Assembly: GCA_017462615.1 (NCBI GenBank)
Contig: JAFTQT010000078.1
Location: 1 to 46,621, forward strand
Length of the DNA: 46,621 bases
Reading direction: 5' to 3'
Source of the DNA: Clostridia bacterium
GTDB taxonomy: Bacteria; Bacillota; Clostridia; Oscillospirales; CAG-272
Shown: positions 10,561 to 25,720 of the stretch, one piece after another
Layout of the letters: every line of letters begins with the position of its first letter
Position numbering within the stretch: position 1 is the stretch's first letter
Translations under genes and position numbers: made by a program
Notes under the pieces: model-generated
What the model saw: only the letters and a program-made list of their open reading frames with translations
The model's database searches: none
Told to the model about the DNA's origin: nothing

Positions 10561-11427
10561 ATGAAAAGAATTTTTTCGCTGTTGCTTGCTATTTTGCTAT
10601 GCGCCCTGCCGCTCGTAGGGTGCGGACTCGCCGAGGAGGGCGGGGTGAAACCTCCTAACGAGGGTGGAAACGAGCCTTCTGCCGAGGAGAACGGCGACGA
10701 GCCTTCTGTTGAGGAGGATGGAGGGGATCAGGTTGAAATCGACCGCATTGGCGGCGTGTCGCTTGCGGCCTTCAGCGCGGTTTTGGATGCGGAAAATATG
10801 ACTCCAGGTATCGGGCAGGGAGATTTTATTAAGCAAATGGGAAAATACAAATATCCTGCGGAGATCCAAGCCGAATTGGATGCCGGCCCTGCTTCCATTG
10901 GAGGTGTTCATCGCGATGGCTTCGACCAAAACACCAACTGCTTTACCTACGGTTATCATCATAACGGTTTGTATTTCGGGTATGAAAACGATGGCCGCTG
11001 GGCTTTGGGGTCGGAGGAATCTCACCGTACCAACTCTTTCTATGCAAGGGTGGTAATGAACGGTCTGACGATGCCCTACAGTGTTGATTTTGATGACACG
11101 TTGAACGATGTTTTTTGCAAAATAGGCATCGATGAGGCGCGGTATGCCGATATTCTTTCCGATTTTGAAAAGCTTGAGCAGACGGAGTCCTTGACGCTTT
11201 ACCAAAAGGATCACGTATCGTTGCAGTTACATAAAGGCGTGATCACGGTGGCAAAGGACGGCGAAAAAAGCCGCGAGGACGGCTATCTTCTCATCTATAG
11301 CGAGACCTCCCCTTTCACTTCACAGGGCGGGGAAGTCGGCACGGCCACGCGCAGTGTGCACTTGCGCTTCCTTGCCGGCGGTGCACTGAGCGAAATATAT
11401 TTTTCCGTGCAGGAGGATTATGTCTGA
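10561..11427 (+). CDS. Lipoprotein of unknown function, paralog 2
   Basis: First 28 aa identical to paralog 1, lipobox LVGC, shared PGIGQGDFI, TNSFYAR and LRFLAGGAL motifs. Confidence 0.85.
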   Translation: MKRIFSLLLAILLCALPLVGCGLAEEGGVKPPNEGGNEPSAEENGDEPSVEEDGGDQVEIDRIGGVSLAAFSAVLDAENMTPGIGQGDFIKQMGKYKYPAEIQAELDAGPASIGGVHRDGFDQNTNCFTYGYHHNGLYFGYENDGRWALGSEESHRTNSFYARVVMNGLTMPYSVDFDDTLNDVFCKIGIDEARYADILSDFEKLEQTESLTLYQKDHVSLQLHKGVITVAKDGEKSREDGYLLIYSETSPFTSQGGEVGTATRSVHLRFLAGGALSEIYFSVQEDYV

Positions 11428-11591
11428 ACGTGGAAGTATTGTGGCAAGCGTTGGCTTAATGGTATAACGGCACTTGCATTTTTATCCATTCCGCGCCGCA
11501 TTTTTATGAAAAAACAATGCCTCCGCCGCCGGCGGGGGCGGAAAGCGCAGATCTTTTTGTGATTTTTATGCAAAAAAATCGCGAAAAAGTA

Positions 11592-11620
11592 TTGACAAGC
11601 AAAACCGAGTGTGCTATACT
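11592..11620 (+). promoter_or_regulatory. Sigma-A promoter of the ilv-leu operon
   Basis: TTGACA (11592-11597), 17 nt, TGcTATACT. Confidence 0.85.
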
Positions 11621-11651
11621 ATTTACAATCTTTTTTTAGAGGTGCAGAAAA

Positions 11652-11792
11652 ATGGCCTTTGCATGTGCAAATATCATCGTCGCCATTCTAAGCGCTATTC
11701 TAATTCTAATCGTACGAGTCGTACGCGAGAATGAGGATAGTGCTGAAAGTTGCGCCTTGATTTGCAAAGCAGAGGAGCATCCCGCCGTATAA
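11652..11792 (+). CDS. Putative ilv-leu attenuator leader peptide, 46 aa (MAFACANIIVAILSAILILIVRVVRENEDSAESCALICKAEEHPAV)
   Basis: RBS GAGGTG, ATG at 11652. 13 of codons 8-24 are Ile/Leu/Val and all three Leu codons there are CTA. It lies between the promoter and a terminator upstream of ilvB. Confidence 0.8.
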   Translation: MAFACANIIVAILSAILILIVRVVRENEDSAESCALICKAEEHPAV

Positions 11793-11850
11793 GTGTCGTG
11801 TATTTTATCATACCACACTCGGCCGGATGAATAGTCTTTCGTTGATTGCA

Positions 11851-11892
11851 AGCCTTACGGTCTCACTTTCAGACCGTAAGGCTATTATTTTT
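11851..11892 (+). terminator. Attenuator terminator upstream of ilvB
   Basis: agccttacggtct-cactttc-agaccgtaaggct followed by attattttt. Confidence 0.8.
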
Positions 11893-11933
11893 GAAATCCA
11901 AAATGCTCATTCCCTGTAAAGGAGGATATGAAA

Positions 11934-13643
11934 ATGAAATTAACCGGCGCGCAAATTCTGATGGAGTGCTTGCTGGAGCAAGAGGTGGACACCATCTTCG
12001 GCTACCCCGGCGGCACCATTCTCAACGTTTACGACGCTTTGTACCGCTACAGCGACAAGATCAAGCACGTGCTGACCGCCCACGAGCAGGGCGCGGCGCA
12101 CGCCGCTGACGGCTACGCCAGAAGCACCGGCAAGGTGGGCGTATGCTTCGCCACCTCCGGCCCCGGCGCCACCAATCTGACTACCGGTATCGCCACCGCC
12201 CATATGGATTCTTCCCCCGTGGTGTTCATTTCCTGTAACGTGCCCCGCGGCCTCATTGGAAAGGATTCCTTCCAGGAGGTGGATATTACGGGTATCACCA
12301 TGCCTATTACCAAATGCAACTACATCGTGGATGACGTGACGAAGCTGGCCGATACCGTCAGAGCCGCCTTTGCCATCGCCAAAAGCGGCAGACCCGGCCC
12401 TGTATTCATCGATATTCTGAAGGATGCCACCGGTGCCAAGTGCGAGTTTGAGCCTTTGCCCCGTGATCAGCATTACAGCCAGGGCAAGCTTGGCTCCATG
12501 ATGCGTCGCTCCTCTCAGAATTTCAAAGCACCCGAGGTCAATGTGAAGGATATCGAGACCTTAGCGGAGATGATCAAGAAATCCGAAAAGCCCCTGCTGA
12601 TCTGCGGCGGCGGCGTGGTGCGTGGCCGTGCTCACAAGGAGTTTTTGGAATTTGCCGAGAAGATCGACTCCCCTGTTGCCATTACCCTGATGGGTGCGGG
12701 CGGCATTTGCGGCAGAAATCCTCTTGCCACGGGCATGATCGGCATGCACGGCACCCAGGCCTCCAATATGGCCTGCGACGCTTGCGACCTGCTGATCTCC
12801 GTGGGCTGCCGCTTCTCGGATCGCGTGGCGCTGGCCCCCAAGACCTTTGCCAAGCAAGCCAAGGTGGTGCAGATCGACATTGACCGTGCCGAGATCAACA
12901 AAAACGTGAAGACCGATCATCATATCGTAGGTGATGCCAAGCGTGTGCTTGCCATGCTGAACGAAATGGTAGAGCCGGCAGATCACAGCGAGTGGAAGAA
13001 ATACGTCTTCTCCTTCAAGACCGAGACCGAGTACGACGAGGGCGGCGAGACCCTGACGCCCAAGCAGATCCTGACCTCCATCGCTAAGCTCCTGCCCCAG
13101 AATACGGTGGTGGCAACCGACGTGGGTCAGCATCAGATGTGGGCCATTCAGCACTTCCGCTTTGATTATCCCGGTCAGCTCCTCACCTCCGGCGGCTTTG
13201 GTACCATGGGCTTCGGTCTCGGTGCCGCCATCGGTGCCAAGATGGGCAATCCCGATAAGACGGTTATCCACATCACCGGCGACGGTAGCTTTCGCATGAA
13301 CTGCAACGAGCTTGCCACCGTGCAGGATTACGGCGTGCCGATCATTACCTTTGTATTTAACAACAACACCCTCGGCATGGTGCGCCAGTGGCAGACCCTC
13401 ATTTACGACAAGCGGTATTCCGAGACCACCCTCAAGCACCGCGGCCCCGACTTTGTGGCGCTGGCCAAGTCCTACGGCCTCGGCGGTGCCCACGTGACCA
13501 ACGTGGCGGAGCTGGAGGCGGCCATTCATGAGGCCATGGCTTGCGGTCACGGCTACGTGATCGACTGTGCCATTGATATGGATGAGAAGGTGCGGCCCAT
13601 GGTAGGCGGTGGCTCTCATATCACCGACTTTATGCTTTCCTGA
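11934..13643 (+). CDS. ilvB: Acetolactate synthase large subunit
   Basis: FGYPGG, HEQGAAHAADGYAR, TSGPGATN, DVGQHQMW, GDGSF...NN TPP motif. RBS spacing favours ATG 11934 over 11928. Confidence 0.96.
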   Translation: MKLTGAQILMECLLEQEVDTIFGYPGGTILNVYDALYRYSDKIKHVLTAHEQGAAHAADGYARSTGKVGVCFATSGPGATNLTTGIATAHMDSSPVVFISCNVPRGLIGKDSFQEVDITGITMPITKCNYIVDDVTKLADTVRAAFAIAKSGRPGPVFIDILKDATGAKCEFEPLPRDQHYSQGKLGSMMRRSSQNFKAPEVNVKDIETLAEMIKKSEKPLLICGGGVVRGRAHKEFLEFAEKIDSPVAITLMGAGGICGRNPLATGMIGMHGTQASNMACDACDLLISVGCRFSDRVALAPKTFAKQAKVVQIDIDRAEINKNVKTDHHIVGDAKRVLAMLNEMVEPADHSEWKKYVFSFKTETEYDEGGETLTPKQILTSIAKLLPQNTVVATDVGQHQMWAIQHFRFDYPGQLLTSGGFGTMGFGLGAAIGAKMGNPDKTVIHITGDGSFRMNCNELATVQDYGVPIITFVFNNNTLGMVRQWQTLIYDKRYSETTLKHRGPDFVALAKSYGLGGAHVTNVAELEAAIHEAMACGHGYVIDCAIDMDEKVRPMVGGGSHITDFMLS

Positions 13644-13656
13644 AAGGAGATGCAGT

Positions 13657-15208
<1,552 letters not shown>

Positions 15209-15218
15209 GAAACCGATT

Positions 15219-15249
15219 TTTTCCACGGCGGCAACGCCGCCGTGGAAAA
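15219..15249. other. Intra-operon stem-loop after ilvC
   Basis: Perfect 14-bp stem ttttccacggcggc-aac-gccgccgtggaaaa. Confidence 0.6.
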
Positions 15250-15325
15250 GTAAATTCTTTTTCGATGAGGCACGTGGCAACGTACCCCATCCAAAGAAAA
15301 TTTGCACCCTCACGGAGGTAAGAAT

Positions 15326-16987
15326 ATGTTTTCCGATCAAATCAAAAAGGGCGTAGAGCGCACGCCCAACAGAAGCCTTTTGTATGCCCTGGGTCTCACC
15401 GATGAGGAGCTTTCCCGTCCCATTGTCGGCATCGTTTCCTCCCACAACGAGATCGTGCCCGGCCATATGCACCTGGACAAGATCGCCGAGGCGGTCAAGG
15501 CGGGTGTCCGCGCCGCAGGCGGCACACCCATTATGTTCCCTGCCATTGCCGTTTGCGACGGTATTGCCATGGGTCACGTGGGCATGAAGTATTCTCTGGT
15601 GACCCGCGACCTGATCGCCGACTCCACCGAGGCTATGGTGATGGCGCATCAGTTTGACGGCCTCGTCATGATTCCCAACTGCGATAAGAACGTGCCCGGC
15701 CTTCTGATGGCGGCGGCACGTCTCAATATCCCCACGATTTTCTGCTCCGGTGGCCCCATGCTGGCCGGACGTCTGCAGGATGGCAGACGTACCTGCCTTT
15801 CTCATATGTTTGAGGCGGTGGGTGCCTACCACGCAGGCACGCTGGACGAGGCGGGTGTTTCGGATTATACCGAAAACGCTTGCCCCAGTTGCGGCTCCTG
15901 CTCCGGTATGTATACCGCAAATTCCATGAACTGCCTCACCGAGGCCATCGGCATGGCGCTGGCCGGAAACGGCACCGTGCCCGCACCCTTTTCTGCCCGT
16001 ATCCGGCTTGCCAAGCACGCCGGTATGCAGATCATGGAGCTGATTCACAAGAACATCCGTCCGCGCGATATCATGACCGAGGCCGCCTTCCACAACGCGG
16101 AGACCGTGGATATGGCGCTGGGCTGTTCCACCAATACCATGCTGCACCTGCCCGCCATTGCCCACGAGGCCGGTGTGGAGATCAGCCTGGATATGTCCAA
16201 TCAGATCAGCGCCAACACCCCCAACCTCTGCCATCTGGCACCGGCCGGTGATACCTTTATGGAGGATCTTGACCGTGCAGGCGGCGTTTCGGCGGTGATG
16301 AAGGAGCTTTGCAAAAAGAATCTGCTGCACACCTCGGTGATGACCGTGACCGGCAAGACGTTGGCCGAGAATCTGGAAAGTGTGCAGAACCGTGATCCCG
16401 AGATCATCCGCCCCATCGAGAATCCCTATTCCCAGAGCGGCGGCATCGCCGTGCTGAAGGGCAATCTCGCCCCCGATGGCTGTGTGGTGAAGCAGTCTGC
16501 CGTTGCCCCCGAAATGATGCAGCACGAGGGCCCCACCCGGGTGTTCGATTCCGAGGAGGAGGCCATCAAGTCCATCTATGCCGGTGAGATCAAGGCCGGT
16601 GACGTGGTGGTGATCCGCTATGAGGGCCCGAAGGGCGGCCCCGGTATGCGGGAAATGCTGAACCCCACCTCTGCCATTTGCGGCATGGGGCTTGGTGAGA
16701 GCGTCGCGCTCATCACCGACGGTCGCTTCTCCGGTGCCACACGTGGCGCGGCCATTGGTCACGTCAGCCCCGAGGCTGCTGCCGGTGGCAACATCGCACT
16801 GGTACAGGAGGGCGATATCATTTCCATTGACATTAAGGCCTGCCGTGTAGAGCTGAAGGTCTCCGACGAGGAGCTGGCCGCTCGCCGCGCCGCTTGGGTC
16901 TGCCCCGAGCCCAAGGTGAAGACCGGATATCTCGCCCGCTACGCCAAGCTGGTCTCCTCTGCCGATAAGGGCGCCATTCTCAACTGA
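15326..16987 (+). CDS. ilvD: Dihydroxy-acid dehydratase
   Basis: [55 protein letters not shown] before ATG 15326. Confidence 0.97.
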
Positions 16988-17001
16988 CAGGAGCTTTTGA
17001 C

Positions 17002-18546
17002 ATGAGTGACAGAGTAAAAATATTTGATACCACCCTGCGTGACGGTGAGCAGTCCCCCGGCTGCAGCATGAATCTTTCGGAAAAGATCGAGGTTGCCCGT
17101 CAGCTGGAGAAAATGAAGGTGGACGTCATCGAGGCGGGCTTTGCTATCTCCTCCCCCGGTGATTTTGAGTCGGTGAGTACCATCGCCAAAACCGTCAAGG
17201 ATTGCTCGGTAGCGTCTCTTGCCCGTTCTACCGTCAAGGATATTGACGCTGCGTGGGAGGCCGTGAAGGTAGCTGCCGATCCCCCTATCCATCTGTTTAT
17301 TGCTACCTCGCCCCTGCATATGGAGTACAAGCTCCGTATGACCCCGGAGCAGGTGCTCTGCAAGACCGCCGAAATGGTGGCGTATGCGAAAAAGTACTGC
17401 TCCAATATTGAATTTTCCGCCGAGGATGCTACCCGCAGTGATTGGGAGTTCCTGGCCAAGGTGGTGAACGTGGCCATCGCCAACGGTGCCACCGTCATCA
17501 ACCTGCCCGATACCGTGGGCTACACCACTCCCAATGAGATGCGTGAGCTGATCGAATATATGGTGAAGAACACCGATCACGCCGGCAGAGCCGAGTTCTC
17601 GGTGCATTGCCACAACGACCTGGGTATGGCTGTTGCAAACTCTCTTGCAGGCGTGCTGGGCGGTGCCCGTCAGATCGAATGTACCGTCAACGGCCTCGGC
17701 GAGCGTGCCGGCAACACCGCCCTTGAGGAGGTGGTTATGGCCATGCACACCCGTCCCGATCTCTTCGGCGATCTGCATACCGGCATTGAGACCACCCGTA
17801 TTTATCGCGCCAGCCGTGCCGTTTACAACATCATTGGTCAAAGCGCACCTCTCAATAAGCCCATCGTGGGCAAAAATGCGTTCCTGCACGAGTCGGGTAT
17901 TCACCAGCACGGCGTTCTCGCCAACAAAAAGACCTATGAGATCCTCACTCCCGAGTCGGTGGGTATCGTGGCCAACAATCTGGTGCTGGGCAAGCACTCC
18001 GGCAAGCACGCCTTTGAAAGCCGCCTCAACGAGCTTGGCTATCACCTCTCTCCCGAGGATCTGATCGCCTGCTTTGAGGAATTCAAGACCCTCTGCGACA
18101 AGAAAAAGACCATCAGCGATGAGGATATCGAGGCCATTGTGCTCCATAAGACCACCCTGGAGGGGATGTCCGAGGAGGAAGGCTACCACCTGGATCGCTT
18201 TGTGGTACATACCAGTAACTACACCACCTCCACCAGCACCGTCAGCCTCAAAAAGGGCGATGAGTTGTTTGAGGAGGTCAGCCTCGGTGACGGTCCCATC
18301 GATGCCTCCTTTAAGGCCATCGACAAGATCGTGAACCCGGAGGCGCATACCTTTAAGACCTACACCATCAACTCCATTTCGGAGGGCAAGGATACCCTTG
18401 GCGACGTTACCGTGCGGCTGGCCGCAGGCGGTCGCACCTTTACGGGCAAGGGACTTTCCACGGATATTATCGAGGCGAGTATCCTCGCCTACATCAACGC
18501 CATCAATAAGATGCAATTTGCCATGGCAAAGGCAAAGGAGGACTAA
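17002..18546 (+). CDS. leuA: 2-isopropylmalate synthase
   Basis: FDTTLRDGEQSPG, HCHNDLG, GLGERAGN, HESGIHQHG, C-terminal regulatory domain. Confidence 0.96.
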   Translation: MSDRVKIFDTTLRDGEQSPGCSMNLSEKIEVARQLEKMKVDVIEAGFAISSPGDFESVSTIAKTVKDCSVASLARSTVKDIDAAWEAVKVAADPPIHLFIATSPLHMEYKLRMTPEQVLCKTAEMVAYAKKYCSNIEFSAEDATRSDWEFLAKVVNVAIANGATVINLPDTVGYTTPNEMRELIEYMVKNTDHAGRAEFSVHCHNDLGMAVANSLAGVLGGARQIECTVNGLGERAGNTALEEVVMAMHTRPDLFGDLHTGIETTRIYRASRAVYNIIGQSAPLNKPIVGKNAFLHESGIHQHGVLANKKTYEILTPESVGIVANNLVLGKHSGKHAFESRLNELGYHLSPEDLIACFEEFKTLCDKKKTISDEDIEAIVLHKTTLEGMSEEEGYHLDRFVVHTSNYTTSTSTVSLKKGDELFEEVSLGDGPIDASFKAIDKIVNPEAHTFKTYTINSISEGKDTLGDVTVRLAAGGRTFTGKGLSTDIIEASILAYINAINKMQFAMAKAKED

Positions 18547-18549
18547 AAG

Positions 18550-19818
18550 ATGGGCATGACCATGACACAAAAGATTCTCGCCGCCCACGCGGGGCTCACC
18601 GAGGTAAAGGCGGGAGATCTGATCGAAGCAAAGCTGGATATTGTGCTCGGCAACGACGTTACCACCCCCGTGGCGGTGGACGTGTTCGACAAGGCAGGCT
18701 TTCAAAGGGTGTTTGACAAGGACAAGATCGCCATCGTGCTGGACCACTACACTCCCTGCAAGGATATCAAATCCGCAGAGCTTTGCGCCACCGCGAGAAA
18801 TTTCGCCAAGCGCTTTGATATCACCCACTTCTATGACGTGGGTAACGTAGGCATCGAGCATGCACTCCTGCCCGAAAAGGGCATTGTGGGCCCCGGCGAT
18901 ATGATCATCGGCGCGGATTCTCACACCTGCACCTACGGTGCCCTGGGTGCCTTTTCCACCGGTGTGGGCTCCACCGACATGGCCGCCGGTATGGCAACGG
19001 GCGAGAACTGGTTCAAGGTTCCCTCCGCCATCAAGGTGACGCTTGTGGGCAAATTTCGCCCCCACGTCAGCGGCAAGGATGTGATCCTGCACCTCATCGG
19101 TCTCATTGGTGTGGACGGCGCGCTGTATAAGTCCCTCGAATTCGTGGGAGAGGGCGTGGCGGAGCTGACGATGGACGACCGTTTCACCATTGCCAACATG
19201 GCCATTGAGGCCGGTGCCAAAAACGGCATTTTCCCCGTGGACGACAAGACCCTTGATTACGTAAAGGGACGCTTTACCCGTGAGATCAAAATTTATGAGG
19301 CCGATGCCGACGCGGTTTACGAGCAGGAGGTCGTCATTGACCTGAACACCCTGAAGCCCACGGTTTCTCTGCCCCATCTGCCCTCCAACACCAAGACGGT
19401 GGACGAGGTCAGCGGTCTTGCCATCGACCAGGTGGTGATCGGCTCCTGCACCAACGGACGCATTTCCGATATGCGGATCGCCGCCGAGATCCTGAAGGGT
19501 CGGAAGGTAGCAAAGAACGTGCGTTGCATCGTCATCCCCGCTACCCAAGAGGTCTATATGCAGTGCGTGAAGGAGGGGCTTGCCGAAATCTTCATTGAGG
19601 CCGGCTGTGCACTTTCCACCCCCACCTGCGGTCCTTGTCTTGGCGGACATATGGGCTGTATGGCCGCAGGCGAGCGCGCCGTTGCCACCACCAACCGTAA
19701 TTTCGTAGGTCGTATGGGTCACGTGAAGAGTGAGGTCATTCTCGCCTCTCCCGCCGTTGCCGCCGCTTCCGCCGTGAAGGGCGCGGTCGCTTGCCCCTGC
19801 GAGCTTGAGGAGGTATAA
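18550..19818 (+). CDS. leuC: 3-isopropylmalate dehydratase large subunit (short LeuC/HacA type)
   Basis: [33 protein letters not shown]; operon context. Confidence 0.94.
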
Positions 19819-19820
19819 CG

Positions 19821-20498
19821 ATGTATCAAGGAAAAGCTTTTCAATACGGTGATAACGTAGATACCGACGTGATCATCCCCGCCCGTTATCTGAACGCTCC
19901 CTCCGCCGAGGAGCTGGCCAAGCACTGCATGGAGGATATTGACGTCAACTTCGTCAAGGAGGTTGAGACGGGCGATATTATGGTGGGCGGTGAGAACTTC
20001 GGCTGCGGCTCCTCTCGTGAGCACGCGCCCATCGCTATCCGCGCCAGCGGCATTTCCTGTGTGATCGCCGCCAGCTTTGCCCGCATCTTCTACCGCAACG
20101 CCATCAACATCGGCTTCCCGATTCTGGAATGTCCCGAGGCTGCCGCCCGTATCAAGAAGGGCGACACCGTTACCGTGGATGCCGAAAGCGGTGTGATCAC
20201 CAACGTTACCACCGGCGAGGTCTTCCACGCCACCCCCTTCCCCGCCTTCATCAACCGTATCATTGAAAACGGCGGCCTGTTGCCCTACCTTGTGAAAAAG
20301 CAGGAGGGTGAAGCAAAATTAACTTCAATATTGCACTTGTCAAGGGAGACGGCATCGGCCCCGAAATCGTGGAGAGTGCCGTTCGTGTTCTCGAAAAGGT
20401 GGGCGAAAAGTATGGCCACACCTTCCATTTCACCTCGTATCTTGCCGGTGGTTGTGCCATCGATGCTTGCGGAAAGCCTCTGCCGGAGGAGACCGTAG
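19821..20498 (+). CDS. leuD: 3-isopropylmalate dehydratase small subunit (expected end 20321; reads through as sequenced)
   Basis: [37 protein letters not shown]. LeuD-like sequence ends near GGLLPYL..EAK, and the codon at 20319-20321 is TTA where TGA is expected. Confidence 0.9.
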
Positions 20499-21391
20499 AG
20501 GGCTGCAAGAATAGTGACAGCGTGCTGCTGGGCGCCGTAGGCGGCCCCAAGTGGGACACGCTCCCCGGCAACATCCGTCCCGAAAAGGCTCTGCTTGGGC
20601 TGCGCGCCGCCCTTGGTCTTTATACCAATCTGCGCCCTGCCCGTATTTTCCCCGCGTTGAAATCCGCTTGCGCCCTGCGCCCCGATATCATCGACCGTGG
20701 CTTTGATCTGGTCATCGTCCGCGAGCTGACTGGCGGCATCTACTTTGGTGAGCGTGGTCGCCGCGAGGGTAAATACGGCCCCGAGGCTTACGATACCGAG
20801 GCCTACAGCGTCATGGAGGTGGAGCGCATTGCCCGCGTGGCATTCGAGACTGCCCGCAAGCGTCGTTGTAACGTAGTCAGCATCGACAAGGCCAACGTGC
20901 TGGAAACCTCTCGCCTCTGGCGAGAGACGGTACACCGTATTGCCGCCGAGTACCCCGACGTGGAGGTTTCGGATATGCTGGTGGACAACGCCGCTATGCA
21001 GCTCATTCGCGACCCCTCCCGCTTTGACGTGGTGGTGACCTCCAATATGTTCGGTGATATTCTCTCCGACGAGGCCTCGCAGATCACCGGCTCTATCGGT
21101 CTTCTCGCCTCCGCCTCCCTCGGCGCGGGCAAATGCGGCCTCTACGAGCCCATTCACGGCTCTGCTCCCGATATCGAGGGGCAGAACAAGGCTAACCCCA
21201 TTGCCACCATTCTTTCCGCCGCTATGATGCTGCGGTATTCCCTTGACCTGCCCGTTGAGGCCGATGCCATCGAGAATGCCGTTGCGGGCGTGATTGAGGA
21301 TGGCTACCGCACGGCGGACATTCTGACCGATCCCACGAAGGAACCGCTCACCTGCACCGCCATGACAGAAAAGATCATGGAAAGGATTTGA
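20318..21391 (+). CDS. leuB: 3-isopropylmalate dehydrogenase (start codon reads ATT as sequenced)
   Basis: The conserved N-terminus [14 protein letters not shown] is in frame upstream of the ORF-track GTG at 20369, with RBS GGAGGG at 20303-20308. Also [29 protein letters not shown]. Confidence 0.92.
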
Positions 21392-21395
21392 AAAA

Positions 21396-22457
21396 ATGCT
21401 GGATATCAAGGTTACCAAAACGACAACGCCCAAGGAGAAGCCTCAGGGCCCCCTTGGCTTCGGTAAGATCTTTACCGACCATATGTTCATGATGAATTAT
21501 ACCGAGGGAATGGGCTGGCACGATCCCCGTGTTGTACCCTTCCAGGATATCTCTCTTTCTCCCGCCTGCGTGGTATTCCACTACGGTCAGGAGATGTTTG
21601 AGGGCATGAAGGCCTATCGCGGTGAGAACGGCGAGACCTATCTCTTCCGTCCCTTCAAAAATGCCGCCCGTGCCAATCAGTCCAACAAGCGTCTTTGCAT
21701 TCCGGAGTTGCCCGAGGATATTTTCGTAGAGGGCGTCAAGGCTGTGGTGGAGGTGGATAAGGATTGGATCCCCACCGAGCCCGGCACCTCCCTGTACATC
21801 CGCCCCTTCATCATCGCCACCGATGCTTTCCTTGGCGTCGCACCCTCCAAAACCTATCTTTACATGGTCATTCTTTCTCCCAGCGGTGCTTACTACAGCG
21901 AGGGCCTTGCCCCTGTGGGTATCTGGATCGAGGATGACTACGTGCGCGCCGTCAAGGGCGGCATTGGCTTCACCAAGACCGGCGGCAACTACGTGGCAAG
22001 CCTTGCGGCACAGGTAAAGGCTCACGACGGCGGCTTTTCTCAGGTGCTGTGGCTGGACGGCGTAGAGCGTCGCTATATCGAAGAGGTAGGCGCCATGAAC
22101 ATCTTCTTCAAGATCGACGGCAAGGTGGTCACCCCCATGCTCAACGGCAGTATTCTGCCCGGCGTGACTCGTGACTCTGTGCTGACCCTCCTGAAGTCTT
22201 GGGGCATTCCCTGCGAGGAGCGTCGCATTTCCGTAGACGAGCTGCTGGAGGCGCAGAAGAACGGCAAGCTGGAGGAGGTTTTCGGCACGGGTACCGCCGC
22301 CGTCATCTCTCCCGTGGGCAAGCTCCGCTATAAGGACGAGATCATGACCATCGGCGACGGTGGCATCGGTCCCGTCAGCCAAAAGCTGTATGATACCATC
22401 ACCGGCATCCAGACCGGTAAGCTGGCCGATCCCTTCGATTGGCGTGTGGAGGTATAA
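21396..22457 (+). CDS. ilvE: Branched-chain amino acid aminotransferase
   Basis: FHYGQEMFEGMKAY, LYIRPF, KTGGNY, EEVGAMN, ILPGVTR, GTAAVISP. Confidence 0.96.
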   Translation: MLDIKVTKTTTPKEKPQGPLGFGKIFTDHMFMMNYTEGMGWHDPRVVPFQDISLSPACVVFHYGQEMFEGMKAYRGENGETYLFRPFKNAARANQSNKRLCIPELPEDIFVEGVKAVVEVDKDWIPTEPGTSLYIRPFIIATDAFLGVAPSKTYLYMVILSPSGAYYSEGLAPVGIWIEDDYVRAVKGGIGFTKTGGNYVASLAAQVKAHDGGFSQVLWLDGVERRYIEEVGAMNIFFKIDGKVVTPMLNGSILPGVTRDSVLTLLKSWGIPCEERRISVDELLEAQKNGKLEEVFGTGTAAVISPVGKLRYKDEIMTIGDGGIGPVSQKLYDTITGIQTGKLADPFDWRVEV

Positions 22458-22459
22458 CG

Positions 22460-23656
22460 GTGCTGACTCTCGATAAGATCTATCAAGCCGCCTTCACCCT
22501 TAAGGACGTGGCTAGAAAAACCGATCTCATCCGCGCTCAAAATATGTGCCCCGATTGCAAGCTGTATCTCAAAACCGAGAACCTGCAGGTAACGGGCAGC
22601 TTTAAGGTGCGAGGCGCGTATTATAAGATCAGCCAGCTCTCCGCGGAGGAGAAATCCAAGGGTATTATTGCCTGTAGCGCAGGCAACCACGCTCAGGGTG
22701 TTGCCCTGGCGGCCAAAAAAATGGGCATCAAGAGCGTGATCTGTATGCCCGACGGCGCCCCCATCAGCAAGGTGGAGGCAACCAAGGCCTTTGGCGCAGA
22801 GGCTTGCCTGGTGCCCGGTGCTTACGACGATGCCTACGCCAAGGCGCTGCAGCTTTGCGATGAGACCGGTGCCACCCTCATTCACCCCTTTGACGATGAG
22901 GACGTGATCGCGGGACAGGGCACCATCGGTCTTGAAATTCTCGATCAGCTTTCCGACGCCGACGCGGTGGTGGTTCCCATCGGCGGCGGCGGTCTGATCG
23001 CAGGCGTAGCCTACGCCATCAAGCATCTGAATCCGAGCATCAAGGTGTACGGCGTGCAGGCAGAGCGCGCGCCTGCCATGGCCGAGAGCCGTGCGGCAGG
23101 TCACGTGGTGACCCTTGACAGCGTCTCCACCTTTGCCGACGGTATTGCGGTGAAGCATCCCGGTGACAACACCTTTGCCATAATTAAGGACTACGTGGAC
23201 GATATTGTCACCGTCAGCGAGGACGAGATCGCCACCGCCATTCTCACGCTGATGGAAAAGCAGAAGCTGGTCGCCGAGGGCGCAGGTGCCGTGGGCGTTG
23301 CTGCCATTATGTTCGGTAAGCTGCCCGTTGCCGGCAAAAAGGTCGTAGCCGTGATTTCCGGTGGCAATATCGACGTGAATATCCTCTCCCGCGTGGTCAC
23401 AAGAGGTCTTGTCACCACCGGACGTAATGCCACCCTGCAGATCGCGCTGGAGGACAAGCCCGGTCAGCTGCTGGGCGTCAGCAGTATCATTTCGCAATGC
23501 GGCGGCAACGTGGTCAGTGTGCATCACGAGCGTTCCGACGCCAATATGGCCGTGGCCAGCTGCTTCCTCAAGATCGGTATGGAGACCCGCGATTTCAAGC
23601 AGATCGAGGAGATCCGTGCGGCTTTGACTGCTGCGGGCTTCAAGATCGTTTCTTAA
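22460..23656 (+). CDS. ilvA: Threonine ammonia-lyase with C-terminal ACT domain
   Basis: LKTENLQVTGSFKVRGA, SAGNHAQG, GGGGL, SGGNID, ACT domain LEDKPGQL. GTG start at 22460 with RBS GGAGGT. Confidence 0.93.
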   Translation: MLTLDKIYQAAFTLKDVARKTDLIRAQNMCPDCKLYLKTENLQVTGSFKVRGAYYKISQLSAEEKSKGIIACSAGNHAQGVALAAKKMGIKSVICMPDGAPISKVEATKAFGAEACLVPGAYDDAYAKALQLCDETGATLIHPFDDEDVIAGQGTIGLEILDQLSDADAVVVPIGGGGLIAGVAYAIKHLNPSIKVYGVQAERAPAMAESRAAGHVVTLDSVSTFADGIAVKHPGDNTFAIIKDYVDDIVTVSEDEIATAILTLMEKQKLVAEGAGAVGVAAIMFGKLPVAGKKVVAVISGGNIDVNILSRVVTRGLVTTGRNATLQIALEDKPGQLLGVSSIISQCGGNVVSVHHERSDANMAVASCFLKIGMETRDFKQIEEIRAALTAAGFKIVS

Positions 23657-23668
23657 AGGAGAATCAAA

Positions 23669-24046
23669 ATGATCAAGCAAATTGCAACCGATAAGGCTCC
23701 TGCCGCCATCGGCCCGTATTCTCAGGGGCTCGATCTCGGCAATATGGTGTTTGTTTCCGGTCAGATCCCTGTGGATCCCGCCACCGGCACCATTCCCGCA
23801 GACGTGGAGGCGCAGGCCGTGCAGTCTCTCACCAATCTGAAAAACGTGCTGGCTGCCGCAGGTCTCGGTATGGAGAACGTGGTGAAAACTGTGGTGTTCC
23901 TCTCCGATCTTGCGGATTTTGCCGTGGTAAACAAGATCTACGAGAGCTTTTTCAAGGCACCCTTCCCTGCGCGCAGCTGCGTGCAGGTTGCGGCCATTCC
24001 CAAGGGCTGCAAGCTGGAGATCGAGTGCATCGCCGTGAGAGCATAA
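23669..24046 (+). CDS. ridA: RidA family enamine/imine deaminase
   Basis: APAAIGPYSQ, VSGQIP, PARSCV (catalytic Arg), LEIECIA. Confidence 0.93.
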   Translation: MIKQIATDKAPAAIGPYSQGLDLGNMVFVSGQIPVDPATGTIPADVEAQAVQSLTNLKNVLAAAGLGMENVVKTVVFLSDLADFAVVNKIYESFFKAPFPARSCVQVAAIPKGCKLEIECIAVRA

Positions 24047-24208: not shown

Positions 24209-25645
24209 TTATTTCGTCAGCTCGTAGGAGATGTTATCCACTGTGACCTCGTAGTAGTACACGTACGCACTGCCGCGGCGGTAGATCCAAATGGTGGCCA
24301 TGTAGGAGTAGGAAACCATCTTGCCGTCCTTTACCTCCACGTCCAGCATAGAGGAGGTGCGACGGATCTTGTCAACGCCGGAGCCAACGGCCTCCAGACG
24401 GGAGGCGTAGGCATCAATGTCCACAGATTTGAACTTAAAGCGGCTCTGGCCGTCAACAAGCTCAGAGGTGGTGAGGTCGCACTCATCAAAGAAGGCGGTA
24501 TCAAACCAATCGTAGACCTTGGCGCGGGCAGCTGCATCGGTCATGGTCTTGGCGGGATTCTGTCCGGCCTTGTCCTCGGTGCGGAATTTGCCGTTCGCGT
24601 ATTTATAGGTGGTCACGTCCTCGCCGGAGGTTATGGTGGCGTTAAAGGTGTAGCCGTTCTCGCTCTCGGTTTGGGAGACCTCGTAGTCGTGGCGCTCCAG
24701 CTGGTTCTTTTTGCCGCTTTCCGTATCGGGCTTGAGGAAGTATTTTTCGGTTTTGGTGAAGGAAAGGGAAGAGGCGCACTCAATTTCACGGAAGAGGGCG
24801 GCAGCGGCCTCCGCAAGCCGCAGGTCCTTGGTTTCCTGGCAATCGGAGATGTCCAAGGCAGGCGCGGTGGCGTTGTTGTATTCCTCATAGGCGCGGGTGT
24901 AGGAAAGCGCTGCGTCTACGTTGCGGGAATCCGCAAAGCGAACCTCCAGCTTCAGCTCCAGAGGGCGGAAATCCTCGGTGGTGCGGAAGGACAGTGTTGC
25001 GTTTTCAATGGTGGCGTACAGCAGCTGATCGGCGGCCTCAAAGTGATTGCAGAGCTGTTTTAGCCCCAGAGCGCTGAAATCGGTAAACGTGGCGATCCAC
25101 TCGCCTGCGTCGTTCTTTTCACATGTAATGTGACCTGCCTCGCTTTCCGCAATGGCAGCAAGGGCGCCGTTGCCGGTCTCACGCAGATGGGCGAGATATT
25201 CCGGACCCGTGAGGGGAGAGACAAGGGTAACGGGCTCGCCCGCGCCTACGGCGCGGCGGGTAAACATCTGGCCGCCCGTGAAGCCGCTTTCCAGCACGTA
25301 GGTCTCCTCGGGAGCGATGACGTTCGCATAGGAATAAAGGGAGGTGGCCTTTTGATAGTAGAAGAGGCTATCGGGGGCTTCCAGACCCGTAACGGTCAAA
25401 AGCTCCGTGGTGGAAATATCCCAGCGCTCGCCGCCCTCGGTGCCGCTCATTTTGAGCTCACCCTTGACGCGATAGGACTGAACACCCTCGCTTTGGTTGA
25501 CGTCGGTTTTCAAGAGGCGGATGGCGCGCCGCTCCTTTCCCAGCAGAGCAAAGGGGAGGCTATCTGCGCTGCAGGATGCGAGCAGGGGAACGAATAATGC
25601 CAGCAATAGGATGGTGGCAATACATTTTTTTGCAAGATGCTTCAT
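24209..25645 (-). CDS. Lipoprotein of unknown function
   Basis: RBS AAGGAG, start MKHLAKK at 25645, hydrophobic signal with lipobox LASC. Confidence 0.8.
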   Translation of the reverse strand: MKHLAKKCIATILLLALFVPLLASCSADSLPFALLGKERRAIRLLKTDVNQSEGVQSYRVKGELKMSGTEGGERWDISTTELLTVTGLEAPDSLFYYQKATSLYSYANVIAPEETYVLESGFTGGQMFTRRAVGAGEPVTLVSPLTGPEYLAHLRETGNGALAAIAESEAGHITCEKNDAGEWIATFTDFSALGLKQLCNHFEAADQLLYATIENATLSFRTTEDFRPLELKLEVRFADSRNVDAALSYTRAYEEYNNATAPALDISDCQETKDLRLAEAAAALFREIECASSLSFTKTEKYFLKPDTESGKKNQLERHDYEVSQTESENGYTFNATITSGEDVTTYKYANGKFRTEDKAGQNPAKTMTDAAARAKVYDWFDTAFFDECDLTTSELVDGQSRFKFKSVDIDAYASRLEAVGSGVDKIRRTSSMLDVEVKDGKMVSYSYMATIWIYRRGSAYVYYYEVTVDNISYELTK

Positions 25646-25691
25646 GACAGGGCTCCTTCGGGGAATAAAATAGTCAACTTGACTGATTTTC

Positions 25692-25720
25692 AGTATAGCA
25701 CACCCCCCAAATGATGTCAA
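25692..25720 (-). promoter_or_regulatory. Sigma-A promoter
   Basis: Minus strand TTGACA (25720-25715), 17 nt, TGcTATACT. Confidence 0.75.

Follow-up and report, generated by a model that had tools for sequence, protein, structure and literature searches.

Leaders rich in codons for branched-chain amino acids (BCAAs), namely isoleucine, leucine and valine (ILV), are established regulators of BCAA genes. The leader of the Escherichia coli ilvGMEDA operon encodes 32 amino acids, of which 15 are BCAAs (PMC6123439), and ribosome-mediated attenuation of ilv-leu operons has been documented in Staphylococcus aureus and Listeria monocytogenes (PMC5794164, PMC6123439). Three further motifs from the Breaker laboratory, ilvB-OMG, ilvB and ilvB-II, are conserved 5' leaders of ilvB that combine a BCAA-rich upstream open reading frame (uORF) with a terminator, and attenuation has been proposed or shown for them; ilvB-II belongs to Corynebacterium, ilvB to Leptospira, and ilvB-OMG to several phyla with peptides that are also rich in threonine (PMC10272879). 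The same source cites riboswitches for guanosine tetraphosphate (ppGpp) on ilvB in Firmicutes. Histidine leader peptides have been predicted in relatives of C. difficile (PMC9413887), and it was noted in 2010 that regular leader peptides take the place of T-boxes in Firmicutes (PMC2965389). Here, we describe the leader of an ilv-leu operon on contig JAFTQT010000078.1 of a Clostridia bacterium (assembly GCA_017462615.1); the 46,621 nucleotides (nt) analyzed, positions 1 to 46,621 of this contig, are referred to as the window.

Based on the analysis presented below, we propose that this leader is a ribosome-mediated (leader-peptide) attenuator, which adjusts the read-through into ilvBNCD-leuACDB-ilvEA-ridA to the amounts of charged tRNA-Ile, tRNA-Leu and tRNA-Val that are available. 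We assign this in silico proposal a probability of roughly 85%. It is founded on the anatomy of the leader, on three competing helices that are conserved and covary, on a uORF that is kept together with its richness in ILV, and on the rarity of selected codons. Together, these observations support a leader that shares with classical leader-peptide attenuators the defining features open to testing in silico, including the four-region layout.

Organization of the ilvB leader

An earlier note on this DNA, made from the sequence alone, had described a promoter, a ribosome-binding site, an ORF of 46 amino acids and a 13-bp terminator, and had counted 6 Ile, 4 Val and 3 Leu codons (all CTA) within codons 8-24 of the ORF. 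All of these elements were recovered at the same positions (Table 1). More specifically, ILV codons make up 13 of the 17 codons in this stretch, with isoleucine encoded by ATC or ATT and valine by GTC or GTA. Throughout the uORF, valine is encoded exclusively by GTA or GTC, and CTA accounts for three of the four Leu codons. The note had also regarded CTA as scarce downstream, and it is indeed absent from the 263 Leu codons of the eight operon genes that were counted. Across 1213 long ORFs of the genome, CTA represents 1.3% of the Leu codons, GTA 16.9% of the Val codons and ATT 28.9% of the Ile codons; one tRNA-Leu(UAG) gene was found in the genome. As the CUA codons belong to a conserved helix, base pairing of the RNA may contribute to their conservation.

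The leader promoter matches the consensus at 11 of 12 positions and carries the TG of an extended -10 element, with transcription predicted to start at about position 11627. The 269-nt leader folds at -100.3 kcal/mol, compared with -65.9 +/- 4.9 kcal/mol for 200 shuffled sequences (z = -6.97), none of which was as good. The unconstrained fold of 11627-11892 consists of a long hairpin formed by regions 1 and 2 (1:2), a hairpin at 11778-11829 and the terminator hairpin at 11851-11883. The sequence of the 11778-11829 hairpin is not conserved, and a hairpin is predicted at the same place in the leaders of the genus. Region 2, the 5' strand of the putative antiterminator, sits inside the 1:2 hairpin in this fold. 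The first nucleotide of the strand belongs to the core helix of this hairpin and the last three to an outer helix, which reads CAUAAU:GUUAUG in most leaders and CGUAGC:GUUGCG in the genus. The antiterminator strand is therefore locked in the 1:2 hairpin as a 5-nt internal loop.

To represent a stalled ribosome, positions 11676-11726 were masked and the transcript was ended at 11875, so that the terminator still lacked its right arm. Under these constraints, 11743-11750 pairs with 11865-11872, 11754-11756 with 11859-11861, 11761-11767 with 11846-11852, and 11768-11775 with 11835-11843, all of them enclosing the hairpin at 11778-11829. The fold thereby turns into exactly the alternative that had been predicted from the letters, in which ctgaaagt (11743-11750) faces actttcag (11865-11872) and ttgcaa (11762-11767) faces ttgcaa (11846-11851) around the same hairpin. 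The number of paired AT1 nucleotides in the window was 0 without a ribosome, 8 with the ILV codons masked and 0 with the stop codon masked. The antiterminator duplex (-19.9 kcal/mol) is close in energy to the terminator hairpin (-21.3 kcal/mol). Its 3' strand, region 3, covers the flank, the left arm and the loop of the terminator, and the gap between this strand and the right arm of the terminator measures 0-4 nt, which would be too short for both structures to coexist. The switch proposed in the earlier note was thus retained in that the antiterminator is freed by the stall mask, while the element that blocks it was refined to the long 1:2 hairpin, whose 5' half is made up of the ILV codons.

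In the mechanism we propose, transcription would begin near 11627 and a ribosome would load onto the uORF. Under amino-acid scarcity, this ribosome would stall within codons 8-24, which include the three rare CUA codons, and would occupy region 1 (11656-11716). The freed region 2 (11743-11775) could then pair with region 3 (11835-11872) as it emerges, so that the 3' strand of the antiterminator would take the left arm and the loop of the terminator, no terminator would form and RNA polymerase would enter ilvB. Under plentiful supply, the ribosome would pass region 2 to reach the stop codon at 11790, and region 2 would either be covered or be recaptured by region 1 behind the ribosome. The 13-bp terminator (11851-11883) would form, and transcription would end at about 11892. 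If the uORF were not translated at all, the 1:2 hairpin would form and lead to termination. The stalling itself, its amino-acid specificity, how it is timed against RNA polymerase and how strongly it regulates the operon are inferred; a leader of this design could sense all three amino acids and control all 11 genes.

Distribution of the leader in related genomes

A DNA search detected the core of the leader in 13 of 61 related genomes, with the host genome included. Using a covariance model of the 5' domain (R1), we found the leader once in each of 14 of the 40 genomes of the genus. These 14 genomes are exactly those with an IlvB at least 88% identical to that of the window; among the rest of the genus, 16 genomes carry an IlvB of about 51% identity and ten yielded no match. 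All 14 leaders keep the Shine-Dalgarno (SD) sequence, the ATG and both promoter hexamers (TTGACA and the -10 sequence), their ORFs are 43-48 codons long, and insertions and deletions within the ORF are multiples of three.

The genus thus contains two types of IlvB, one (L061-L074) always accompanied by the leader and one (L075-L090) located in a gene cluster without a free leader. This division suggests gain or replacement of the whole cassette. In 13 of the 16 loci with the 51% type, we found no ILV-rich uORF, T-box-like motif or free intergenic leader; the other three were dropped, as they are cut at a contig end (L080, L090) or short (L087). Four loci of this type were scanned with Rfam and gave no matches. 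These loci bear no information on the leader finding itself.

To cover a wider range, the 80 closest relatives of IlvB (72-92% identity) were collected from 185,579 species genomes. R1 matched 39 of these 80 loci, and a second model built from 38 leaders (R2) matched 51 at an expectation value (E) of at most 0.01. All 51 matches of R2 lie on the ilvB strand, 100-290 nt upstream of the ilvB start. R1 matched 1 of 150 other genomes sampled evenly from the order, and R2, run with stricter filters, matched none of 150 sampled evenly from the class. This indicates that the leader family is uncommon across Clostridia as sampled. Exact-pattern scans returned 11, 9 and 40 stretches, and at least two of the latter 40, labelled Flavobacterium and Prevotellaceae, are probably due to chance. 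A diverged copy of the leader with the peptide MFFGFAIINVIILSVILIVVLKTMDDAKSYVLNCKTEKF was found in a genome from another family of the order (G092).

A weak member of the family was observed in the cultured Clostridium viride DSM 6836 (L154), about 130-260 nt upstream of ilvB, with an R2 score of 30.6 bits. Its uORF encodes MVRLIHMILVLVVGTGIVQLVIPAKGCKA, and it is followed by a terminator-like hairpin with a poor T tract.

Conservation of the leader ORF

The conserved core helix (AGC AUU AUU CUN) was used to fix the reading frame in 41 leaders, the window and 40 others. Each of them contains an in-frame uORF from ATG to stop, with 26-48 codons and 11-17 Ile, Leu or Val residues, and the other two frames are closed in every case. 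The ILV fraction is 0.37 in frame, compared with 0.28 and 0.12 in the other two frames. The segment of the ORF between the helix arms diverges in nucleotides and keeps its richness in Leu, Val and Ile. Conservation of the uORF, its SD sequence and its ILV-rich stretch upstream of orthologous operons, which the earlier note had anticipated, was thus seen in 14 of the 40 genus genomes and in 41 of 41 leaders.

The stop codon shifts in position among these leaders; counted from the 3' arm of the core helix, it falls between +2 and +62 nt, and at +55 in the window. In two leaders (L140 and L116), it even precedes the codons for 'NSA(E/K)S(C/Y)A'. Given this 60-nt shift, the C-terminal "NSAESCA" is conserved as RNA and not as peptide. 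The RNA strand behind the motif reads AUAGUGCU(G/A)AAAGUU(A/G)(U/C)GCC.

Covariation of the competing helices

Covariation was counted in 38 leaders, using MAFFT alignments that had not been fitted to any structure. Two rows with a two-column shift in the terminator loop (L113 and L130) were kept and scored as mismatches. The main antiterminator helix (11743-11751 with 11864-11872) is 94.7% paired, and seven of its nine pairs have changed on both sides; slid controls reach 17-57%. In one example, the same pair occurs as A-U in 17 leaders, G-C in 13 and G-U in 2. For the whole antiterminator, none of 500 shuffles reached any of the five measures used. The compensatory changes in the antiterminator that the earlier note had called for are therefore present.

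The competing structures show comparable patterns. Pairing in the terminator stem reaches 94.9%, and 8 of its 10 pairs have changes in both partners (slid controls 27-50%); none of 500 shuffles matched it in four of the five measures, and three did so in the number of further pair types. The 1:2 core together with the next outer helix is 94.2% paired, with changes on both sides in 7 of 14 pairs (slid controls 28-54%), and no shuffle out of 500 matched its percentage of pairing or its covariation score. The terminator alone does not account for all of these changes, as some of them lie in its loop. For example, the double change CUAAAAGUU:AACUUUUAG in G092 preserves the antiterminator. Within the genus alignment, the helices of the unconstrained fold are 93.3% paired and those of the antiterminator 93.7%, and one compensatory pair (G-C to A-U, in two species) affects the antiterminator only.

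Nascent transcripts were simulated as minimum-free-energy folds of the 41 leaders, cut just past the terminator loop, and an antiterminator was called when at least six nucleotides were paired to the loop region. Without a ribosome, the antiterminator formed in three leaders, with a mask on the ILV codons in 24, and with a mask at the stop codon in two. When the full-length leaders were folded without constraint, the antiterminator's 5' strand paired mainly with the part of the uORF upstream of the core helix in 30 of the 41.

A different anti-antiterminator, in which region 2 sequesters the SD sequence, was also considered. RNAalifold on the genus alignment gave the pairing GGUGCAAC:GUUGCGCC (11749-11757), which carries a compensatory change from CG to UA in two species of the genus. 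As a general mechanism, this pairing was ruled out by the wider family, in which only 12 of 41 leaders pair at least four SD nucleotides with region 2, at a mean duplex z of -0.63. The pairing is a feature of the lineage and not part of the core mechanism; within the genus, it may limit translation of the leader or require a queued ribosome. One further alignment (A3) had been fitted to model R1 and placed sequence from within the ORF on the SD strand in several rows, and its counts for the outer helices were discarded.

Relation to T-boxes and other RNA families

The absence of a T-box, claimed from the letters, agrees with a permissive scan of 11000-12400 against Rfam 15 (E <= 10), which returned no T-box (RF00230) and only unrelated families at chance level (E of about 1 to 8). 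Rfam 15 includes ilvB-OMG, and none of its amino-acid leader, ilvB-associated or ppGpp (ykkC-type) riboswitch families matched in the scanned stretch. Elsewhere in the genome, the T-box model gave five matches, three of them above the gathering score (Table 1). The organism therefore uses T-boxes, but not at ilvB.

We further scanned 53 of the 80 IlvB-relative loci with Rfam. In eight of them (L118, L121, L124, L128, L132, L135, L138 and L149), a T-box that reaches or exceeds the gathering score occupies the position of the leader. A T-box of 83 bits was found at L126, and the T-box core sequence only at L125 and L146. The T-box loci belong to other uncultured Clostridia with IlvB proteins 73-77% identical to that of the window, and the T-boxes lie about 70-330 nt upstream of ilvB. 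Their presence at the orthologous position marks this site as a known place of amino-acid-responsive attenuation. None of the scanned loci of the leader type matched an Rfam family: one scan of 18 loci included 14 of this type, which gave no match at E <= 0.1, and further scans returned nothing at gathering level except T-boxes and tRNAs.

Leader sequences in gut RNA libraries

Contigs with the leader stretch come from four runs of a single metatranscriptome study of the bovine gut. In the RNA library of run X1, a 257-nt contig covers exactly 11636-11892 without a single difference, which corresponds to the predicted terminated leader, and a contig from run X3 (11627-11777) starts at the predicted transcription start. 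That one contig begins at the predicted start and another stops where the T tract of the terminator stops is a weak hint of a terminated leader. These contigs, all from one study, document presence only; their ends cannot prove RNA ends, and uncovered parts are not evidence.

Operon, host and neighboring features

The host assembly measures 2.13 Mb and is 78% complete. Near-identical leaders in public records are labelled uncultured Oscillospiraceae, Eubacteriales or Clostridia and originate from animal and human guts. The attribute 'clostridial' in the earlier note can accordingly be refined to an uncultured gut lineage labelled Oscillospiraceae or Eubacteriales. The operon of 11 genes assigned there downstream of the leader is borne out by Pfam, which identifies ilvB, ilvN, ilvC, ilvD, leuA, leuC, leuD, leuB, ilvE, ilvA and ridA on one strand. 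For ilvB, ATG 11934 is the likely start, judged from the spacing to its SD sequence and from relatives that align from residue 3 of the ORF beginning at 11928; ATG 11928 itself lies too near the SD sequence. CodY (PF06018) was not found in the genome, which at 78% completeness is not evidence of absence.

Table 1. Positions of the leader elements, operon genes and T-box matches.
Feature	Position	Strand	Basis
Sigma-70-type promoter: -35 TTGACA (11592-11597), 17-nt spacer, extended -10 TGcTATACT (hexamer 11615-11620)	11592..11620	+	Consensus scan
SD sequence of the uORF, GAGGTG, 7 nt upstream of ATG	11639..11644	+	Sequence; invariant in 14 genus leaders
uORF, 46 codons plus stop (ATG 11652, TAA 11790-11792), peptide MAFACANIIVAILSAILILIVRVVRENEDSAESCALICKAEEHPAV, 16/46 Ile/Leu/Val	11652..11792	+	Translation
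Regions 1:2, long interrupted hairpin (anti-antiterminator), 11656-11716 (uORF codons 2-22) with 11720-11775	11656..11775	+	Fold
Regulatory codon stretch, codons 8-24, most of region 1	11673..11723	+	Codon count
1:2 core helix	11691-11701 with 11734-11744	+	Fold, covariation
Region 2, antiterminator 5' strand: CUGAAAGU (11743-11750), GCC (11754-11756), UUUGCAA (11761-11767)	11743..11767	+	Fold, covariation
Variable hairpin over the uORF stop (TAA 11790-11792), caps the antiterminator helix	11778..11829	+	Fold
Region 3, antiterminator 3' strand: UUGCAAG (11846-11852), GGU (11859-11861), ACUUUCAG (11865-11872)	11846..11872	+	Masked fold, covariation
Intrinsic terminator (3:4), 13-bp stem 11851-11863 with 11871-11883, 7-nt loop, tail ATTATTTTT to 11892	11851..11892	+	Consensus scan, fold
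ilvB (acetolactate synthase large subunit), including SD AGGAGG (11920-11925)	11920..13643	+	Pfam, sequence reading
ilvN, ilvC, ilvD, leuA, leuC, leuD, leuB, ilvE, ilvA (threonine dehydratase with ACT domain), ridA; short gaps	13609..24046	+	Pfam
T-box matches elsewhere in the host genome (G000)	C115:2538-2794, C110:1092-1335, C125:8147-8380, C20:25447-25672, C150:9109-9327		Rfam model

Further features were observed in and around the operon. Between ilvC (end at 15208) and ilvD (start at about 15302), a perfect 15-bp hairpin, TTTTTCCACGGCGGC AAC GCCGCCGTGGAAAAG, spans 15218-15250 on the plus strand and is followed by a weak T tract, TAAATTCTTT. This hairpin may act as an internal partial terminator, or as an RNA-stabilizing or processing element that separates ilvBNC from the remaining operon. 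The last gene, located at 23669-24046 on the plus strand directly after ilvA, encodes RidA (Endoribonuclease L-PSP family). RidA removes the reactive enamine/imine produced by threonine dehydratase, which fits its placement after ilvA. On the minus strand, a promoter-like site (25720-25692; TTGACA, 17 nt, TATACT, with the TG also seen in the leader promoter) lies at the start of a 503-amino-acid ORF (24209-25720).

Discussion

The findings described here point to a leader-peptide attenuator, and several of them weigh against this interpretation. In the leader of the window, about 40 nt separate the main antiterminator strand from the stop codon that follows it, and a ribosome terminating there would not cover the strand. 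The state under plentiful supply would therefore have to rely on refolding of the 1:2 hairpin behind the ribosome. In the simulated fold of the window with a mask at the stop codon, it is 1:2 refolding and not the masking that removes the antiterminator. Furthermore, the antiterminator was not the minimum-energy fold under the stalled mask, a crude test, in 17 of 41 leaders, including six of the nine other members of the genus; in these six, a long pairing of the 5' untranslated region and SD sequence with region 2 prevails unless it is masked as well. Other contigs of the same metatranscriptome runs cross the promoter (X1 record 1 and X2 record 8), which leaves room for DNA carry-over or read-through from upstream. 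Finally, the near-invariant nucleotides of the core helix and junction could also serve a trans-acting binder, and the uORF peptide resembles a small transmembrane helix.

The possibility of a trans-acting binder leads to a riboswitch-like or factor-binding switch, in which a metabolite, uncharged tRNA or a protein bound at the core helix and junction would select the antiterminator or the terminator, and the uORF would be incidental or auxiliary. Such a switch would account for the near-invariant blocks GC(A/G)(U/C)UAUUCU and AUAGUGCU(G/A)AAAGUU in leaders whose IlvB proteins are only 72-80% identical, as well as for the conserved 5-nt internal loop UGAAA, and other ilvB-associated motifs had initially been filed as riboswitch candidates (PMC10272879, PMC8632094). 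We consider it quite improbable, as the in-frame uORF keeps its start codon in all 41 leaders despite large changes in sequence and length, and its variable part remains rich in Leu, Val and Ile though the nucleotides differ. The three competing helices account for all of the invariant blocks, and no Rfam family matched. That the ORF is a functional small membrane peptide with its own terminator, and that ilv-leu control is independent of its translation, is scarcely credible. The hydrophobic stretch of 20 residues followed by a polar tail would suit such a peptide, as would its sole Pfam similarity, a sub-threshold match to the small Cys-rich membrane family FeoB_associated (PF12669; 14.5 bits against a cut-off of 27, E = 0.043). 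However, its N-terminus is variable, and its C-terminal half is not conserved as protein, given the shifting stop codon. The consensus scan found no promoter-like site between the terminator and ilvB, and all 51 R2 matches place the element immediately ahead of ilvB. In addition, part of the ORF covaries with the loop of the terminator, a link that would be needless for a simple terminator at the end of a gene.

An attenuator could also depend on translation without being specific to any amino acid, and would then report the general coupling of ribosome and RNA polymerase, as in a global slowdown of translation or the stringent response. Only a slow ribosome on region 1 is needed to free region 2, the peptide is long, and its stalling positions do not consist of one codon repeated in tandem. 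The concentration of ILV codons exactly in region 1 in all leaders speaks against this, and so do the rare CTA codons of the window and the identity of the controlled genes, which form the ILV pathway itself. The orthologous positions are, moreover, occupied by T-boxes, which are amino-acid specific. An unspecific attenuator is therefore very unlikely. Another unlikely arrangement, which would extend the attenuator and not replace it, is a hybrid sensor. Here, ribosome stalling would be combined with binding of uncharged tRNA, a BCAA-binding protein or an alarmone by the core helix and UGAAA loop, and the SD:region 2 pairing of the genus would gate leader translation to one round. If so, the operon would integrate two signals through one RNA. 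As a further point of this reading, the leader would move between gut Clostridia together with the ilv-leu cassette, and would replace a T-box at its site or be replaced by one. Leader-peptide attenuation by ILV codons remains the reading we prefer.

As the mechanism is known from textbooks, its presence here should be a modest surprise to the specialist. The RNA family, in contrast, is uncatalogued and has no match in Rfam 15. In a literature search that covered few subscription journals and no supplements, we found neither such a leader on ilv-leu in Clostridia nor a description of the family. It adds a well-supported cis-regulatory RNA family to mostly uncultured Clostridia of the gut and rumen, with over 50 examples at species level and three helices that covary and exclude one another. 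Close orthologues of ilvB carry either a leader peptide or a T-box at one position, which presents a natural exchange of two sensors of tRNA charging. For annotation, the uORF need not be called a hypothetical membrane protein. The ratio of reads before and after position 11892 or so is also a predicted read-out of BCAA limitation in gut metatranscriptomes.

Among the described systems, the ilvL and ivbL leaders of the E. coli ilvGMEDA and ilvBN operons, classical cases of multivalent attenuation, are similar to the leader of the window in placing an ILV-rich uORF before BCAA genes, in forming 1:2, 2:3 and 3:4 helices and in ending with an intrinsic terminator. The window differs from these leaders in its longer peptide (46 amino acids; 26-48 across the family), in an antiterminator that engages the terminator's loop and left flank, in its Gram-positive anaerobic host and in the single leader ahead of a fused 11-gene ilv-leu operon; homology to them in sequence or structure was not detected, with no Rfam leader family matching at E <= 10. 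In the leu leader of Salmonella and E. coli, rare CUA codons at the control positions raise the sensitivity to the supply of Leu-tRNA. The window likewise uses rare CUA codons at such positions, but they are interspersed with Ile and Val codons and form part of a conserved helix.

S. aureus and Listeria share with the window a Firmicutes ilv-leu operon in which a BCAA-rich attenuator peptide precedes the first gene. They belong to the class Bacilli, however, and their attenuator acts together with CodY; the likeness noted here is one of description. These examples also soften the contrast with T-box and CodY control drawn in the earlier note, which holds for the lack of a T-box at this locus and is less sharp given that ribosome-mediated ilv-leu attenuation is already in use in both. 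From the ilvB-OMG, ilvB and ilvB-II motifs, the leader appears to be set apart by their description and by the absence of an Rfam match. With the T-box leaders of orthologous ilvB genes, it shares its position, the output through a terminator and an antiterminator, and tRNA charging as the signal. The T-box senses uncharged tRNA directly and without translation, whereas the leader of the window would read the same signal through a translating ribosome.

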